Assembly (NCBI GenBank): GCA_963699165.1
Contig: OY969413.1
Span: 852,562-916,561 of the forward strand
Direction: 5' to 3'
Length of the DNA stretch: 64,000 nt
Origin: Candidatus Kaiserbacteria bacterium
GTDB taxonomy: Bacteria; Patescibacteriota; Minisyncoccia; Phycocordibacterales; Phycocordibacteraceae
Shown here in pieces: positions 2,061 through 36,995 of this stretch. The position numbers and the translations under genes are program-made. Under the pieces are notes generated by a model that saw nothing but the letters and a program-made list of their open reading frames with translations, did no database searches and had not been told where the DNA came from. The stretch's first letter is position 1. Each line of letters opens with the position of its first letter.

Positions 2061-2166
2061 GCCCCGTTACAAATATGCAGAGTCGTCTGACGATTTTCTG
2101 GAACTGCGCTATTATTACGTCACGACAAACCATCGATGGAAACTTTGAATTCATTTGTAACGGGGC
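2061..2166. repeat. CCCGTT-palindromic intergenic element, copy 0 (arms gCCCCGTTACAAAT / ATTTGTAACGGGGc)
   Basis: Perfect 14-bp terminal inverted repeat flanking a 78-bp interior; ends 15 nt before the ileS ATG. Same architecture as copies at 5022, 8963, 12966, 28355-28712 and 36671. Confidence 0.6.
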
Positions 2167-2180
2167 TAGGATAAAGGCGT

Positions 2181-5030
2181 ATGGCAAATGCCCCGCAGAA
2201 ATCAGAGGCCGCGAAGCGCGAAGAAGAGATTCTCGCGTTTTGGGAGCGCGAGGGCATATTTGAAAAGTCGCTCGAGAAGAAGTCCCCGAAAGGCGAATAC
2301 GTTTTTTATGACGGTCCGCCGTTTGCGACCGGCACGCCGCATTACGGGCACATTGTCGCGAGCATCATTAAAGACGCCATTCCACGCTACTGGACCATGC
2401 GCGGCTACCATGTTCCGCGCGTGTGGGGCTGGGATTGCCACGGATTGCCGATAGAAAACATTGTCGAAAAAGAGCTCGGCTTTAAACACAAAAAAGATAT
2501 CAAGGCGTACGGCGTCGCAAAATTTAATCAGCGGTGCCGCGAGCGCGTGCTGACGTATGTGGACGAATGGAAGAAAGTCATTCCGCGCATCGGCCGCTGG
2601 GTCGACATGGAGCACGCATACCGGACGATGGACAAATCGTTTATGGAATCGGTGTGGTGGGTATTCAAACAAATTTACGACAAAGGGCTCGTATACGAGG
2701 ACTATCGCTCGATGCACATTTGTCCTCGTTGCGAGACGACGCTCTCGCAGCAGGAAGTCGCGGAAGGGTACAAAGATGTAAAAGACATCTCGGTGACGGT
2801 GAAGTTTAAAGTGAAAAATCCGGAGAAACACGGCTTGCCTGCGAACACCTATTTCCTCGCATGGACAACGACGCCATGGACATTGCCCGGCAATGTCGCG
2901 CTTGCGGTTGGAGAAAATATAAAATACGGCGTGTATGAAAGCAGCGGGGAGAACGTGATTCTTGCCGAGAGCCGAGCGACGCAACATCTTGCTTCGCAAA
3001 GGTCCTCGGTTCCCCTCGCGGACTCGGCCAGACCGTTTGCTCCCCAAGCTGTTGCGTCGCTCACGGGGCGAGAATTGGTTGGCATCGAATACGAACCGCC
3101 GTTTGATTACTACGTGAGCGACGCAACGCTGAAAAACCGCGAGAACGGATGGAAAGTGTATGTGGCGGATTTCGTGACGGAAGAAAGCGGCACGGGCATT
3201 GCGCATGAAGCGCCTGCGTTCGGCGCGGAGGACTGGGAGCTTTTGAAGCAGGTTAATTTGCCATTCGTTCAGCACGTACACATGGACGGGACAATGAAGC
3301 CCGAAGTGGAGGACTTTGCGGGACTCGAAGTAAAGCCGCGTTCGGACAACGATTCGGAGCGGCTCTCGACTGATATCGCCGTGCTGAAATATCTGCAGGA
3401 GCACGGAACATTTTTCTCGAAAGAAAACATTTTGCACGCGTATCCGCATTGCTGGCGCTGCGACACGCCGCTTTTAAACTATGCGACTTCGTCGTGGTTC
3501 GTTTCCGTCACGCAGATAAAAGACAATCTGCTAAAAAATGCGGAACATATTTCGTGGTCGCCGGCGCACATCAAGGAAGGGCGTTTCGGCAAATGGCTCG
3601 AAGGCGCGCGCGATTGGTCGATTTCCCGCCAGCGATTTTGGGCGAGCGTGATTCCGCTGTGGCGCTGTGAGACGTGCAAGAAAGTGCGCGTGTTTGGAAG
3701 TGTCGCCGAGCTCGAAAAAGCGAGCGGCAAAACCGTCGACGATTTGCATAAAGATATCGTGGACGAAATCACGGTGCCATGCGAATGCGGGACGCAGATG
3801 CGGCGCATTCCGGACGTGCTCGACACATGGTTTGACTCGGGCTCGATGCCGTACGCCGAGCGGCACTATCCGTTTGAAGGCAAAGAAAAATTCGATGCGG
3901 TTTTCCCGGCGCAATTCATCGCCGAAGGCATCGACCAAACGCGCGCATGGTTTTACTACCTGCATGTGCTTGGCGGCGCGCTCTTTCAAAAAAGCGCTTT
4001 TCAAAATGTCATCGTCAACGGCATTGTGCTCGCCGAGGACGGGAAGAAAATGTCGAAGCGTCTGCAAAATTATCCCGACCCGCTCGAAGTCGTTGAACGC
4101 TACGGCGCCGACGCGTTGCGTTTGTATCTGCTTTCGTCGCCCGTCGTGCAGGCGGAAAATCTTGCATTCTCGGAATCAGGCGTTGATGAAGTTGCAAAGA
4201 AAAATATCGGACGACTTCACAACGTGCTCTCGTTTTACAAACTCTACGAAAACGGAACTGCGCGCGCGAATACAAGTGAAAATATTCTTGACCGCTGGAT
4301 TTTCGCGCGTCTCGCGCAACTCGTCGCGGAAACGACAAACGGATACGACCGCTACGAACTCGACCGCGCCACGCGTCCGCTCGCGCTTTTCATCGACGAC
4401 TTGTCGGTGTGGTATCTGCGCCGCTCACGCGACCGCTTTAAGGAAGACGATGCCGATAAAAAAGAAGCGCTTTCCGCGCTTCGCTATGTGCTTTATACGC
4501 TTGCGACGGTGATGGCGCCGTCGATGCCATTTATCGCGGAAGAAATTTTCCAAAGCGTGCGCGAAGACGGCGACCCGCAAAGCGTACATCTTGCCGATTG
4601 GCCGGAAGAGGAAGCCGGCAAAGAGGCGAATGATTTGTTCGCGGACATGGCGCTCGTCCGCGAGCTTGCATCGGCCGCGCTCATGCTTCGCCAAAAGGCC
4701 GGCATCAAAGTGCGCCAACCGCTCGCAACATTTTCCGCGTCCGTCATTCCAAATATCCCGGAACTGCTCGAGATTCTGAAAGACGAGATAAACGTAAAGG
4801 ACATTGTTGAGCGAGAAGGCGACATGGCATTTGATACAAAACTCACACCCGAACTGATTAAAGAAGGCGACGAGCGCGAAATGGCGCGCGCTGTCGCGGA
4901 TGCGCGCAAAACGGAAGGATTCAATACGCATGACAAAGTGCGCGCTGAAGTGAATCCGGAAGGGAAGCACGAAGTTTTGCTTTCGACCGGCACGGTTCGT
5001 TTCAACTTAATTCGCGATGCGTCCCGTTAG
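2181..5030 (+). CDS. ileS: isoleucyl-tRNA synthetase (type 2, eukaryote-like)
   Basis: 949 aa. HYGH motif (PHYGHIVAS), GWDCHGLPIE, KMSKR (KMSKRLQNYPDP), zinc-binding CxxC pairs; editing and anticodon-binding regions typical of IleRS. Confidence 0.9.
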   Translation: MANAPQKSEAAKREEEILAFWEREGIFEKSLEKKSPKGEYVFYDGPPFATGTPHYGHIVASIIKDAIPRYWTMRGYHVPRVWGWDCHGLPIENIVEKELGFKHKKDIKAYGVAKFNQRCRERVLTYVDEWKKVIPRIGRWVDMEHAYRTMDKSFMESVWWVFKQIYDKGLVYEDYRSMHICPRCETTLSQQEVAEGYKDVKDISVTVKFKVKNPEKHGLPANTYFLAWTTTPWTLPGNVALAVGENIKYGVYESSGENVILAESRATQHLASQRSSVPLADSARPFAPQAVASLTGRELVGIEYEPPFDYYVSDATLKNRENGWKVYVADFVTEESGTGIAHEAPAFGAEDWELLKQVNLPFVQHVHMDGTMKPEVEDFAGLEVKPRSDNDSERLSTDIAVLKYLQEHGTFFSKENILHAYPHCWRCDTPLLNYATSSWFVSVTQIKDNLLKNAEHISWSPAHIKEGRFGKWLEGARDWSISRQRFWASVIPLWRCETCKKVRVFGSVAELEKASGKTVDDLHKDIVDEITVPCECGTQMRRIPDVLDTWFDSGSMPYAERHYPFEGKEKFDAVFPAQFIAEGIDQTRAWFYYLHVLGGALFQKSAFQNVIVNGIVLAEDGKKMSKRLQNYPDPLEVVERYGADALRLYLLSSPVVQAENLAFSESGVDEVAKKNIGRLHNVLSFYKLYENGTARANTSENILDRWIFARLAQLVAETTNGYDRYELDRATRPLALFIDDLSVWYLRRSRDRFKEDDADKKEALSALRYVLYTLATVMAPSMPFIAEEIFQSVREDGDPQSVHLADWPEEEAGKEANDLFADMALVRELASAALMLRQKAGIKVRQPLATFSASVIPNIPELLEILKDEINVKDIVEREGDMAFDTKLTPELIKEGDEREMARAVADARKTEGFNTHDKVRAEVNPEGKHEVLLSTGTVRFNLIRDASR

Positions 5031-35920: not shown

Positions 35921-36588
35921 TGCCTAAGGTAGCGTAATTCCTTGTCGGGTAAATTCCGACGTGCACGAATGGTGTAATGACTGGGAAACTGTCTCGAGGA
36001 CTCGCTCGGTGAAAATGCACTTCCGGTGAAGATGCCGGATACCTGTAGTTAGACGAAAAGACCCCAGGAGCTTTACTACAGCTTCGTATTGGCCCTGCGG
36101 GATACATGCGTAGCATAGATGGGAGACATTGAAGCATTCCTTTCGGGGGATGTGGAGTCGTCAGTGAAATACCATTCTTGTATCTTGCAGTGTCTAACCC
36201 CGTTGGGATCCAACGGGGGACCGTGCGTGGCAGGTAGTTTTGGTGGGGCGCTATCCTCCTAAAAAGTAACGGAGGAGTCTATTAAGGTTCTCTAGGCGCG
36301 AATGGAAACCGTGCCGATAGTGTAATGGCATAAGAGAGCTTAACTGCGAGGGGTACTTCCCGAGCAGATGCGAAAGCAGAGCATAGTGAACCGATGGTAC
36401 GCCTTAGATGCGGCCAGAGATTAACGGATATAAGTTACCCTGGGGATAACAGGCTAGTTCCGCCCAAGCGTCCTTAGCGACGGCGGAGTTCGGCACCTCG
36501 ATGTCGGCTCACCATAGCGCGGGGCTGGAGAAGGTCCCAAGCGTTTGGCTGTTCGCCAATTAAAATGGTACGCGAGCTGGGTTCAGAC

Positions 36589-36995
36589 CGTTCAGCAACT
36601 AACAAGAGTTGGTGATTGAACGGTCTGAATCCACGAGGCAATTGTTAGGTGCGTGGAGACGCACTATGCGTCCCGGTAGAGACAAGAACCTCACCAAGGT
36701 TCTGGCTCGCTAAAGCGAGCGTCTCTAACGGGATGCGAAAGACATACTCACGGCGGTCCCGAATAGGAATATTCGGGAAGCAAATCAACTGATATCGGTG
36801 AAATCCAATCTCATTGTGTATGAGAGGACAACACCGAGGGAATTCTTTGCAATCGCAAAGAGACCCGTAGAGACTGAATGTTGATGCTCCAGGCTAAAAC
36901 AATCTCGAAGAGATTGTTCGCCCGAACTTTTGCAACGCAAAAGTTTTAGGGAGTAAGTTACAGTCCGATCCTCCGAGTAATCGGAGTTAACTAGA
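36589..36995 (+). mobile_element. ORF-less group I intron in 23S (position about 2593, I-CreI-type site region)
   Basis: Conserved 23S GGGTTTAGAACGTCGTGAGACAG is split: gggttcaga | about 407 nt | (t)gcgtgagacagg. No ORF. Contains a CCCGTT-palindromic element copy (36671-36733). Confidence 0.6.
36671..36733. repeat. CCCGTT-palindromic element copy inside 23S intron (arms TCCCGGTAGAGACA / GTCTCTAACGGGA + TG)
   Basis: 13-14 bp arms nearly identical to copy 1 (5022-5102), in the same orientation, ending ...aacgggATG. Interior forms two short hairpins (agaacc…ggttct; gctcgc taaa gcgagc). Confidence 0.5.

Follow-up and report, generated by a model that had tools for sequence, protein, structure and literature searches.

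The window analyzed in this study, a 64-kb stretch (64,000 nt) of Candidatus Kaiserbacteria bacterium contig OY969413.1 (forward strand, positions 852,562 to 916,561), contains eight copies of a hairpin element of 63–118 nt, whose sites were read base by base. The genes around the copies, confirmed by Pfam, are argS, ileS, recO, glyS, the gene of an AI-2E transporter, rpsF, ssb, and the gene of a Wzy-like/TPR protein. The copies and the frames that they carry are listed below in window positions, with target-site duplication abbreviated as TSD and open reading frame as ORF.

2062–2165, + strand: C-type copy of 104 nt with arms CCCCGTTACAAAT and ATTTGTAACGGGG; flanks CTTG (2058–2061) and CTAG (2166–2169); directly 5′ of the ileS −10-like box TAGGAT, with its end 15 nt before the ileS ATG at 2181.
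5022–5103, + strand: B-type copy of 82 nt with arms TCCCGTTAGAGACA and TGTCTCTAACGGGA; TSD TGCG (5018–5021 and 5104–5107); the ileS stop TAG (5028–5030) is in the left arm, and A5103 is the A of the recO ATG.
8961–9076, + strand: A-type copy of 116 nt; left flank ATGTG (8956–8960), right flank TGAA (9077–9080); A9076 is the first base of the AI-2E transporter ATG; the extended −10 box TGCTAGGAT (8941–8949) is 6 nt 5′ of the left ATG; two relay mini-ORFs, 8956–9003 and 9000–9047, are linked via an ATGA overlap.
12964–13077, + strand: A-type copy of 114 nt with arms TACCGTT... and ...AACGGTA; TSD TGTA (12960–12963 and 13078–13081); the rpsF stop TAA is at 12953–12955, and A13077 is the A of the ssb ATG.
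12959–13072, + strand: element-borne leader ORF of the 12964 copy, 37 codons (MYTVRNRERINLNNTMATITSTNRIDTGVVETSASYF, then stop), from the original ssb ATG to the right-arm TAA, 4 nt before the rebuilt ssb ATG.
28354–28471, + strand: tandem A-type copy 1, 118 nt; left flank ATGAA (28349–28353); the upstream Wzy-like/TPR ORF ends at a TAG (28366–28368) within the left arm; the terminal TGA of leader ORF 28349–28474 overlaps the next ATG.
28476–28593, + strand: tandem A-type copy 2, 118 nt; shares one TGAA (28472–28475) with copy 1; leader ORF 28471–28596 ends on an ATGA overlap.
28598–28713, + strand: tandem A-type copy 3, 116 nt; interior unrelated to those of copies 1 and 2; the stop of ORF 28593–28688 is 24 nt upstream of the host ATG at 28713, where an ORF of 49 codons (28713–28862) begins.
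36671–36733, + strand: B-type copy of 63 nt; TSD TGCG (36667–36670 and 36734–36737) preceded by an A; not at a start codon but within the 23S rRNA gene, on or close to the 5′ edge of a region that has sub-threshold group I intron matches and a LAGLIDADG ORF.

The ends of the elements are built on YCCCGTTNNARA and its reverse complement, and the core of the terminal inverted repeat (TIR) is YCCCGTTAGA. TIR arms of 13–26 nt were found in all eight window copies and in about 170 copies in the loci fetched from other genomes (see below). The half-site pattern YCCCGKTNNARA matches the window 17 times where 0.98 matches are expected, and the arm-plus-ATG pattern TNNAACGGKATG eight times against an expected 0.28, so that the palindromic repeat family proposed in an earlier note on this DNA is real and far above chance. 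Its view that the interiors fall into subfamilies was borne out by the A, B, and C types of the window. All window copies fold into a long hairpin (z-scores of −3.4 to −8.2). In subfamily A the arms, of approximately 22 and 26 nt, are conserved and the interior is variable. The interiors of tandem copies 1 and 2 are 83% identical, and the unrelated interior of copy 3 points to an independent insertion into a regenerated TGAA target.

Direct repeats of 4 bp flank the copies at 5022 (TGCG), 12964 (TGTA), 36671 (TGCG), and 2062 (CTTG/CTAG) as well as those of the tandem array (TGAA), and the left repeat is preceded by an A, which places an ATG on both sides of the element. At the 8961 copy, the direct repeat is reduced to TG. 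These 4-bp repeats at every copy and the left-flank ATG had been overlooked in the earlier note. All six places that it listed do hold copies, with 12966–13075 corrected to 12964–13077. Its description of the elements as lying exactly between stop and start codons does not stand, as the ileS ORF (2181–5030) and the Wzy-like/TPR ORF (26173–28368) both stop at a TAG within the left arm, and exact abutment to the start codon fails for the 2062 copy, given its distance from the ileS ATG. Every chromosomal copy had also been assigned to a co-directional gap between housekeeping genes; the argS, ileS, recO, glyS, AI-2E, rpsF, and ssb genes were confirmed, but the 36671 copy is inside a split 23S rRNA gene. 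Finally, the tandem copies do not adjoin rplJ, which begins at 29071; the next gene is the 49-codon ORF.

With the glycyl-tRNA synthetase (GlyRS) as a probe, 80 metagenome loci were fetched at 64–85% identity; L-numbers such as L131 denote fetched sequence loci. The synteny ileS-recO-DUF11-glyS-AI2E...rpsF-ssb is kept in the fetched metagenome loci. In about 30 relatives, the ileS/recO junction is empty and reads uninterrupted as ...gcgATGCGGCATAA, with an 8-nt overlap of the two genes. The window has ...gcgATGCG, the 82-nt element, and TGCGGCATAG at this junction, a clean insertion with TGCG duplicated. Subfamily A occupies the same junction in L131, L090, and L027, a different type does so in L134, and L150, like the window, has a subfamily B copy there; such filling by different subfamilies marks it as a repeatedly hit target. 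The glyS/AI-2E site is empty in about 35 relatives, where TGnTAGGAT-N6/7-ATG is conserved. The rpsF/ssb site is empty in about 30 (gTATAAT-N6-ATGTACCTCAACAAA) and filled in L131, L134, L089, and L107. Upstream of ileS, the empty site of about 15 relatives (aaacgCTAGGATa...ATG) shows that the C-type copy duplicated CTAG. Empty sites in relatives were thus found at four window loci.

Elements are also nested within elements in L091 (− strand, approximately 6400–6545), L105, and L074; in one case, an A-type copy contains a hairpin of 29 nt made of arms only, CCCCGTTAGAGGCACAGCCTCTAACGGGG, with CACG duplicated. The empty sites, the nesting, and the tandem triple with its unrelated third interior establish DNA mobility. 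The elements have TIRs, a TSD of fixed length, a small size, no transposase gene, many copies, and presence/absence polymorphism, the features of MITEs (miniature inverted-repeat transposable elements), and the MITE-like architecture noted earlier is supported by the TIRs, the 4-bp duplications, and the empty sites. We regard the identity of the family as a mobile element as secure and hold it with high confidence. Readings of the interruptions as a bulge-helix-bulge (BHB) intron or as a gene-60-type hop were dropped, since variable 4-bp duplications and empty sites indicate DNA transposition.

Identical ATGNN sequences stand on both flanks of 70 of 103 full copies. Copies that end in a C..G pair instead of T..A have the right flank G/TGAA (the slash marks the junction with the element), which shows that the duplication is 4 bp long and that the start codon takes its first base from the end of the element. 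CTAG, CACG, TACA, and CATG are further duplications found among the copies, and a few copies either face the other way (TTCA...TTCAT) or have TAAA as the target. Of 99 distinct A-type copies, 84 have ATG on the right flank and 8 have GTG, 92 in all, and an ORF of at least 60 aa, or one running off the locus, follows in 91 of the 99.

At element-bearing starts, the ATG is followed by AA in 52% of cases, GA in 23%, AG in 10%, and CG in 8%. The fifth base is a purine at 95% of these starts, compared with 59% of 473 background leaderless-like starts (Fisher p = 3e-13). The preferred target can be written A/TGRR, and the terminal A (or G) of the element forms with the duplicated TG the rebuilt ATG (or GTG). 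As a B-type copy is inserted at ATGCG in the untranslated 23S site, a sequence preference for A/TGRR must exist. Approximately 92 of the 99 copies are in one orientation relative to the gene, and the outer 13 nt of the arms are symmetric.

Read from the left ATG, the left arm encodes M-x-P-V-R-N-R-G-R..., and the right arm ends ...A-S-Y-F-TAA-CGGG-ATG. The length of the element is a multiple of three (3n) in 56 of 99 copies, where 33 are expected. In the frame that ends at the arm TAA, the interior is free of stops in 60% of copies, against 9–14% in the other two frames, and in the left-ATG frame it is stop-free in 52%, against 14–17% in the control. A full leader ORF is present in 38 of the 80 copies with a left ATG, compared with 10.0 ± 2.7 when the interiors are shuffled (maximum 21 in 1000); among the copies of 3n length, the figure is 38 of 50, against 9.9 expected. 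In a home-made relay simulation, in which translation may restart if an ATG is no more than 12 nt from a stop, an unbroken path was found in 62 of 80 copies (25.9 ± 3.8 expected). The length of the element sets how the frame ends: 3n gives TAA, 4 nt, and the host ATG; 3n+1 gives GGA-TGA overlapping the host ATG; and 3n+2 gives an in-frame fusion. Reading in frame into the host protein is found in a minority of cases (L043, L069, L101, L146, and the 278-nt copy in L106). In the window, the three tandem copies are traversed by a chain of ATGA-overlapping ORFs, from 28349–28474 through 28471–28596 to 28593–28688, and then comes the host ATG at 28713.

Related copies differ from one another by substitutions spread evenly over the codon positions (54/61/60), with no third-position bias, which argues that the openness of the frame is kept and not the peptide. 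The leader peptides had no match in Pfam or NCBIfam, and a profile of 38 of them recovered six tiny ORFs only among 5.8 billion predicted proteins. With no family matches, even substitutions, and six tiny relatives, a functional conserved peptide was rejected. The semi-conserved NRIG(F/Y)G motif seems to be ancestral or a feature at the nucleotide level.

The translational context of the host is marked by the end of its 16S rRNA gene.

53713–53850, + strand: 16S rRNA 3′ exon and tail, with GAACATATCCAAATT after helix 45 in place of GAUCACCUCCUUU.

As the tail after helix 45 lacks CCUCC, there is no anti-Shine-Dalgarno (anti-SD) sequence, and no anti-SD-like 13-mer was found anywhere in the window at up to 2 mismatches. 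An SD-like motif precedes only 1 of the 80 element-bearing starts. TANNNT is found 5–8 nt before the left ATG in 32 of these 80 copies, with a peak at 6 nt, and some of the remaining copies are on ATGA overlaps with the upstream gene. For the ORFs of the window, TANNNT stands 5–9 nt before the first ATG in 12 of 46, and an SD-like motif in 5. In relatives, conserved −10 boxes precede the AI-2E gene (TGnTAGGAT, 6–7 nt, ATG) and ssb (TATAAT, 6 nt, ATG), as well as ileS, DUF11, and glyS. More generally, −10-like boxes (TAGGAT, TATACT, and TATAAT, often TG-extended) end 6–8 nt before the ATG in nearly all genes examined, namely ileS, DUF11, glyS, AI-2E, and ssb; they were located at window positions 2166–2183, 5672–5696, 7575–7597, and 8941–8958 and in relatives L122–L201, and the upstream gene often has its stop codon within them. 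Based on these sequence patterns, host genes appear to be either leaderless, with a −10 box 6–8 nt before the ATG, or coupled to the upstream gene, which suggests a leaderless layout with one promoter per gene in this lineage.

Taken together, these features are probably non-autonomous MITE-like DNA transposons of an undescribed superfamily, distributed across Patescibacteria (Parcubacteria/Paceibacteria lineages), that insulate themselves by termination-reinitiation. In the mechanism that we propose, a DDE-type transposase would move the elements through a 4-nt staggered cut at A/TGRR, and the terminal A of the element would re-form the host start codon with the duplicated TG. The original ATG, 5′-terminal or coupled, would keep loading the ribosome after the insertion. 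The ribosome would translate the element-borne frame through the hairpin, terminate at the arm UAA or at an ATGA overlap, and then re-initiate, or simply continue, on the host gene, so that an insertion would be nearly neutral. Selection would then purge gene-breaking or wrongly oriented insertions. It is established that termination can be followed by reinitiation where stop and start codons overlap or are close together (PMC6728339; review PMC12548453). The translational part of this proposal is well supported statistically, and we consider it reasonably likely, although we infer both the transcript start at the ATG and the translation of the leader frame. Of the three roles offered in the earlier note, a translational start module in a genome without SD sequences comes closest, in view of the 16S tail without CCUCC, the near absence of SD-like motifs at element-bearing starts, and the frame that leads to the rebuilt ATG.

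Several points weigh against this proposal. Leaderless transcription and re-initiation are deduced from sequence alone. Even under the permissive relay model, whose rule of an ATG within 12 nt of a stop is our own, 18 of 80 subfamily-A copies fail. The two B-type copies of the window and the 8961 copy fit poorly, with leader frames that end 28–38 nt before the host ATG, and the subfamilies other than A lend weak support (10 of 20, against 5.5 ± 1.7). The copies are not fully independent, as some are orthologous. A hairpin of approximately −40 kcal/mol that begins 6 nt after a 5′-terminal AUG might impede 70S loading unless loading is co-transcriptional. Finally, the roughly 1.8 Mb of fetched sequence contained no autonomous element or transposase with these termini, and pairs of arms 400–4000 nt apart, with or without a matching duplication, proved to be only neighboring MITEs in the same sequence.

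One alternative is that the family is a purely selfish MITE with no adaptation to translation, in which the open frame was simply inherited from a recent master copy and the location reflects target preference alone. The A/TGRR bias is indeed seen even at the non-coding 23S site at 36671, the left-ATG frame has internal stops in 39 of 99 copies, and the peptide sequence is not conserved. However, the interiors have diverged to the point of barely aligning, and yet 38 of 50 copies of 3n length are still stop-free, where 9.9 are expected, and lengths cluster on 3n. Target preference alone would also not yield the common orientation of the copies, despite symmetric terminal 13 nt. We therefore consider this explanation unlikely.

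Another possibility is a structured RNA module domesticated by the host, such as an RNase III or processing site, an mRNA stabilizer, or a regulatory hairpin, in which the RNA fold is what matters. A long stem is present in every copy, at the z-scores given above, and the copies are in transcribed co-directional gene arrays, with one in an rRNA gene. However, this stem is the terminal inverted repeat itself: RNAalifold on 45 copies gave no interior structure, and covariation was limited to two terminal pairs. A role of the fold alone predicts neither the open frame nor the 3n lengths, and the duplications, empty sites, and nesting are signs of DNA mobility. Rfam, searched over the whole window at the gathering score, gave no match on the seven copies outside rRNA-gene sequence, and a search at E ≤ 1 over 8800–13200, which holds two copies, gave none either. 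The eighth copy (36671–36733) is in the span aligned by the large subunit (LSU) rRNA model (33096–36677) and overlaps a sub-threshold group I intron match (36725–36987). The conserved RNA structure or RNase III module suggested earlier thus finds no footing beyond the terminal-repeat stem, and we judge this reading quite improbable.

The right arm could also be seen as an outward promoter that recreates a leaderless transcript, with TATTTC, 7 nt, and ATG mimicking the −10-N7-ATG arrangement of the host. The spacing in TATTTC-TAACGGG-ATG agrees with the 6–8 nt at native starts, and no part of the element is more conserved than the arm. Nevertheless, the last T of a −10 box is near-invariant in sigma-70 promoters and the hexamer has a C in its place, with no TG extension; the left arm, as its mirror image, would drive transcription the other way; and the open frame, 3n lengths, and orientation bias would be left unexplained. 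An outward promoter is, in our view, very improbable. Scarcely credible is the reading of the elements as doublets like those of repetitive extragenic palindromic (REP) sequences (REPINs), mobilized by the RAYT-like tyrosine (HUH Y1) transposase encoded at 24495–25244: the protein is weakly RAYT/IS200-like (Pfam Y1_Tnp E = 1.3e-5; NCBIfam REP_Tyr_transpos 32 bits, cut-off 80), and REPINs are likewise hairpins of about 100 nt with conserved arms, but the palindrome that flanks its gene, in six copies, is a different one (TGTGGAAGTTTAACTTTCACA), its homologs in five other loci have on their flanks palindromes specific to each genome and in no case CCCGTT arms, and the elements have variable 4-bp duplications, whereas HUH Y1 transposition makes none.

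Beyond the proposed termination-reinitiation, one could imagine that the integration machinery reads the transcription or translation start of leaderless genes, through the open promoter complex or the +1 ATGRR, and that the leader ORF has been co-opted as a portable translational control cassette, which would make this the first such transposon. We regard this extension as doubtful. If true, a sizeable share of Patescibacteria genes would be expressed via mobile upstream ORFs in a phylum without Shine-Dalgarno pairing.

The distribution of the family was followed with an 18-mer from the right arm of subfamily A (GCGTCCTATTTCNAACGG), which was scanned against a one-genome-per-species collection. 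At least 119 stretches matched, and all but approximately nine of the matches listed come from at least about 70 Patescibacteria metagenome-assembled genomes (MAGs), labeled as Kaiser-, Giovannoni-, Wolfe-, Lloyd-, Nomura-, and Niyogibacteria, Paceibacterota, and Parcubacteria. Many other subfamilies, from 29-nt arm-only hairpins to 285-nt forms, have only the YCCCGTTAGA core in common. In IMG/VR, the A-type arm had a single match, at 2728–2745 of L202, a contig labeled as giant virus (GVMAG-M-3300009785-3_000001), which is probably a mis-binned Patescibacteria fragment. The arm sequence was found in no paper, and a literature search returned nothing on MITEs or leaderless genes in the candidate phyla radiation (CPR).

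Several variants were observed among the fetched loci. Long forms of 278 and 277 nt in L106 (5098–5375 and 5781–6057) have about 92 codons open from the left ATG; one continues in the same frame through the host gene, and the other closes with an ATGA overlap. Very short CCCC...GGGG hairpins of 29–39 nt, with CTTG on one flank, were seen in L117 (3228–3266), L118 (1663–1696), L059 (7741–7769), and L044 (2980–3014), and the one in L117 is directly 5′ of the extended −10 box TGCTAGAAT. In L052 (− strand, near 1600–1660), an A-type element of about 50 nt that consists of arms only is apparently in, or at the end of, an EngB-like GTPase frame and not at a start codon.

The rRNA genes of the window are themselves interrupted and unlinked, with the 23S gene followed by 5S (38220–38333) and by 16S about 13 kb further on. 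The 16S gene (51498–53850) is in two pieces: exon 1 extends to 52720 (model position 1386), exon 2 spans 53713–53831, and the insertion of approximately 990 nt contains a LAGLIDADG ORF (53091–53603) and a group-II-D1D4-like match (53027–53138). The 23S region (33096–38200) has at least two interruptions and LAGLIDADG ORFs at 35274–35858 and 37210–37695. Its exon was aligned to about 36625, and group I intron matches at 36725–36987 and 37609–37840 are both below the Rfam gathering score. As the sarcin-ricin-loop exon resumes at about 37848, the whole-window Rfam 23S call (33096–36677) misplaces the 3′ end. At 36578–36633, a hairpin loop of the 23S rRNA is extended by 26 nt relative to the bacterial model (approximately 2620–2625), with a 26-bp imperfect inverted repeat.

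Two transposase genes are also present in the window, and the earlier statement that the termini match no insertion sequence (IS) there holds for both. The IS30-family element (gene at 49055–49978, − strand; NCBIfam 168.7 bits, cut-off 80) was rejected as a parent: its candidate ends near 49000 and 50090 are unlike the CCCGTT arms, and IS30 elements make duplications of 2–3 bp. The RAYT-like gene, in the region 23945–25300, is preceded by the six copies of the 21-nt palindrome and has a related one near 25259. Its homologs in L050, L061, L086, L113, and L200 are each bracketed by a different perfect palindrome specific to the genome. This gene and its palindromes look like a REP/RAYT-type system in Patescibacteria, separate from the hairpin elements.

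From a biological perspective, mobile DNA is thought to be scarce in the tiny, gene-dense genomes of Patescibacteria (CPR), and the window has about one MITE copy per 8 kb, of a kind common to many genera. The elements indicate how a transposon may colonize the start codons of a leaderless genome without SD sequences, where almost any other insertion would be lethal. They also provide natural, replicated test cases for termination-reinitiation and leaderless initiation; how these proceed, with 70S set against 30S scanning, is still debated (PMC12548453). In practice, gene callers miss the leader ORFs, as the small number of relatives among predicted proteins shows, and may misplace CPR starts. 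The arm sequence can serve as a marker for strain typing and for transposase hunting.

Among known systems, the elements resemble in part the Correia elements of Neisseria (CREE/NEMIS), which are small MITEs of about 100–150 bp, bounded by TIRs, near gene starts in transcribed intergenic DNA, and which form RNA hairpins. Correia elements have a TA duplication, 26-bp termini, a site for integration host factor (IHF), promoter halves, and hairpins that are RNase III substrates; the elements described here have a 4-bp duplication (TGNN and others), unrelated YCCCGTTAGA termini, a start-codon register, and a leader ORF. With the Rickettsia palindromic elements (RPEs), they share palindromic mobile DNA that is tolerated in a coding context through preservation of the frame. 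However, RPEs are inserted within ORFs and become a translated part of the protein, whereas most copies here are on a start codon and the frame is ended by a stop before the host ATG. The likeness to REP/REPIN-RAYT systems is in the abundant hairpins, conserved arms, variable loop, and compact genomes, with a RAYT-like gene in the window. REP/REPIN sequences have no TSD, and the RAYT gene is flanked by their palindrome, which is specific to the genome; many genera have identical CCCGTTAGA arms, and these do not flank the RAYT-like genes. Membership of a Correia or REP type, to which the architecture had been compared, thus fails on the TSD, the termini, and the RAYT test. The IS200/IS605-derived PATE have subterminal hairpins and insert 3′ of a fixed tetra- or pentanucleotide with no duplication; here, the repeats are terminal and the 4-bp duplications vary. 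Elements of the IS1380/piggyBac type make 4-bp duplications (4–5 bp for IS1380) and have termini that start with CC(C), and the piggyBac end CCCTAGAAAGATAG is loosely similar to CCCGTTAGAAATAG, which is a lead only: no transposase of any family was found next to the arms, and the duplications are TGNN, CTAG, CACG, and TAAA, not TTAA.

The closest known analog is found in MIRUs (mycobacterial interspersed repetitive units; Supply et al. 1997), described, in the passage that a review devotes to them, as repeats that insert at start codons and carry a coupled internal ORF (PMC12548453). The mycobacteria that host them are likewise rich in leaderless genes (PMC4633059). As with MIRUs, an ORF in the repeat is co-oriented with the flanking gene at its start codon, and the functional logic, as far as that passage describes it, would be the same, with a short ORF that delivers the ribosome; the coupling itself is predicted here from the arrangement of the frames. 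MIRUs are direct tandem units of 46–101 bp, with no TIRs or hairpin, and are coupled via an ATGA overlap. In contrast, the elements of this study are hairpin MITEs with arms of approximately 22–26 nt, a 4-bp TSD, and a right-arm stop 4 nt before the ATG, in an unrelated phylum. The family, an undescribed superfamily of MITEs, is unusual in its start-codon register and has a built-in frame that is predicted to hand ribosomes over, and its coupling logic is MIRU-like.

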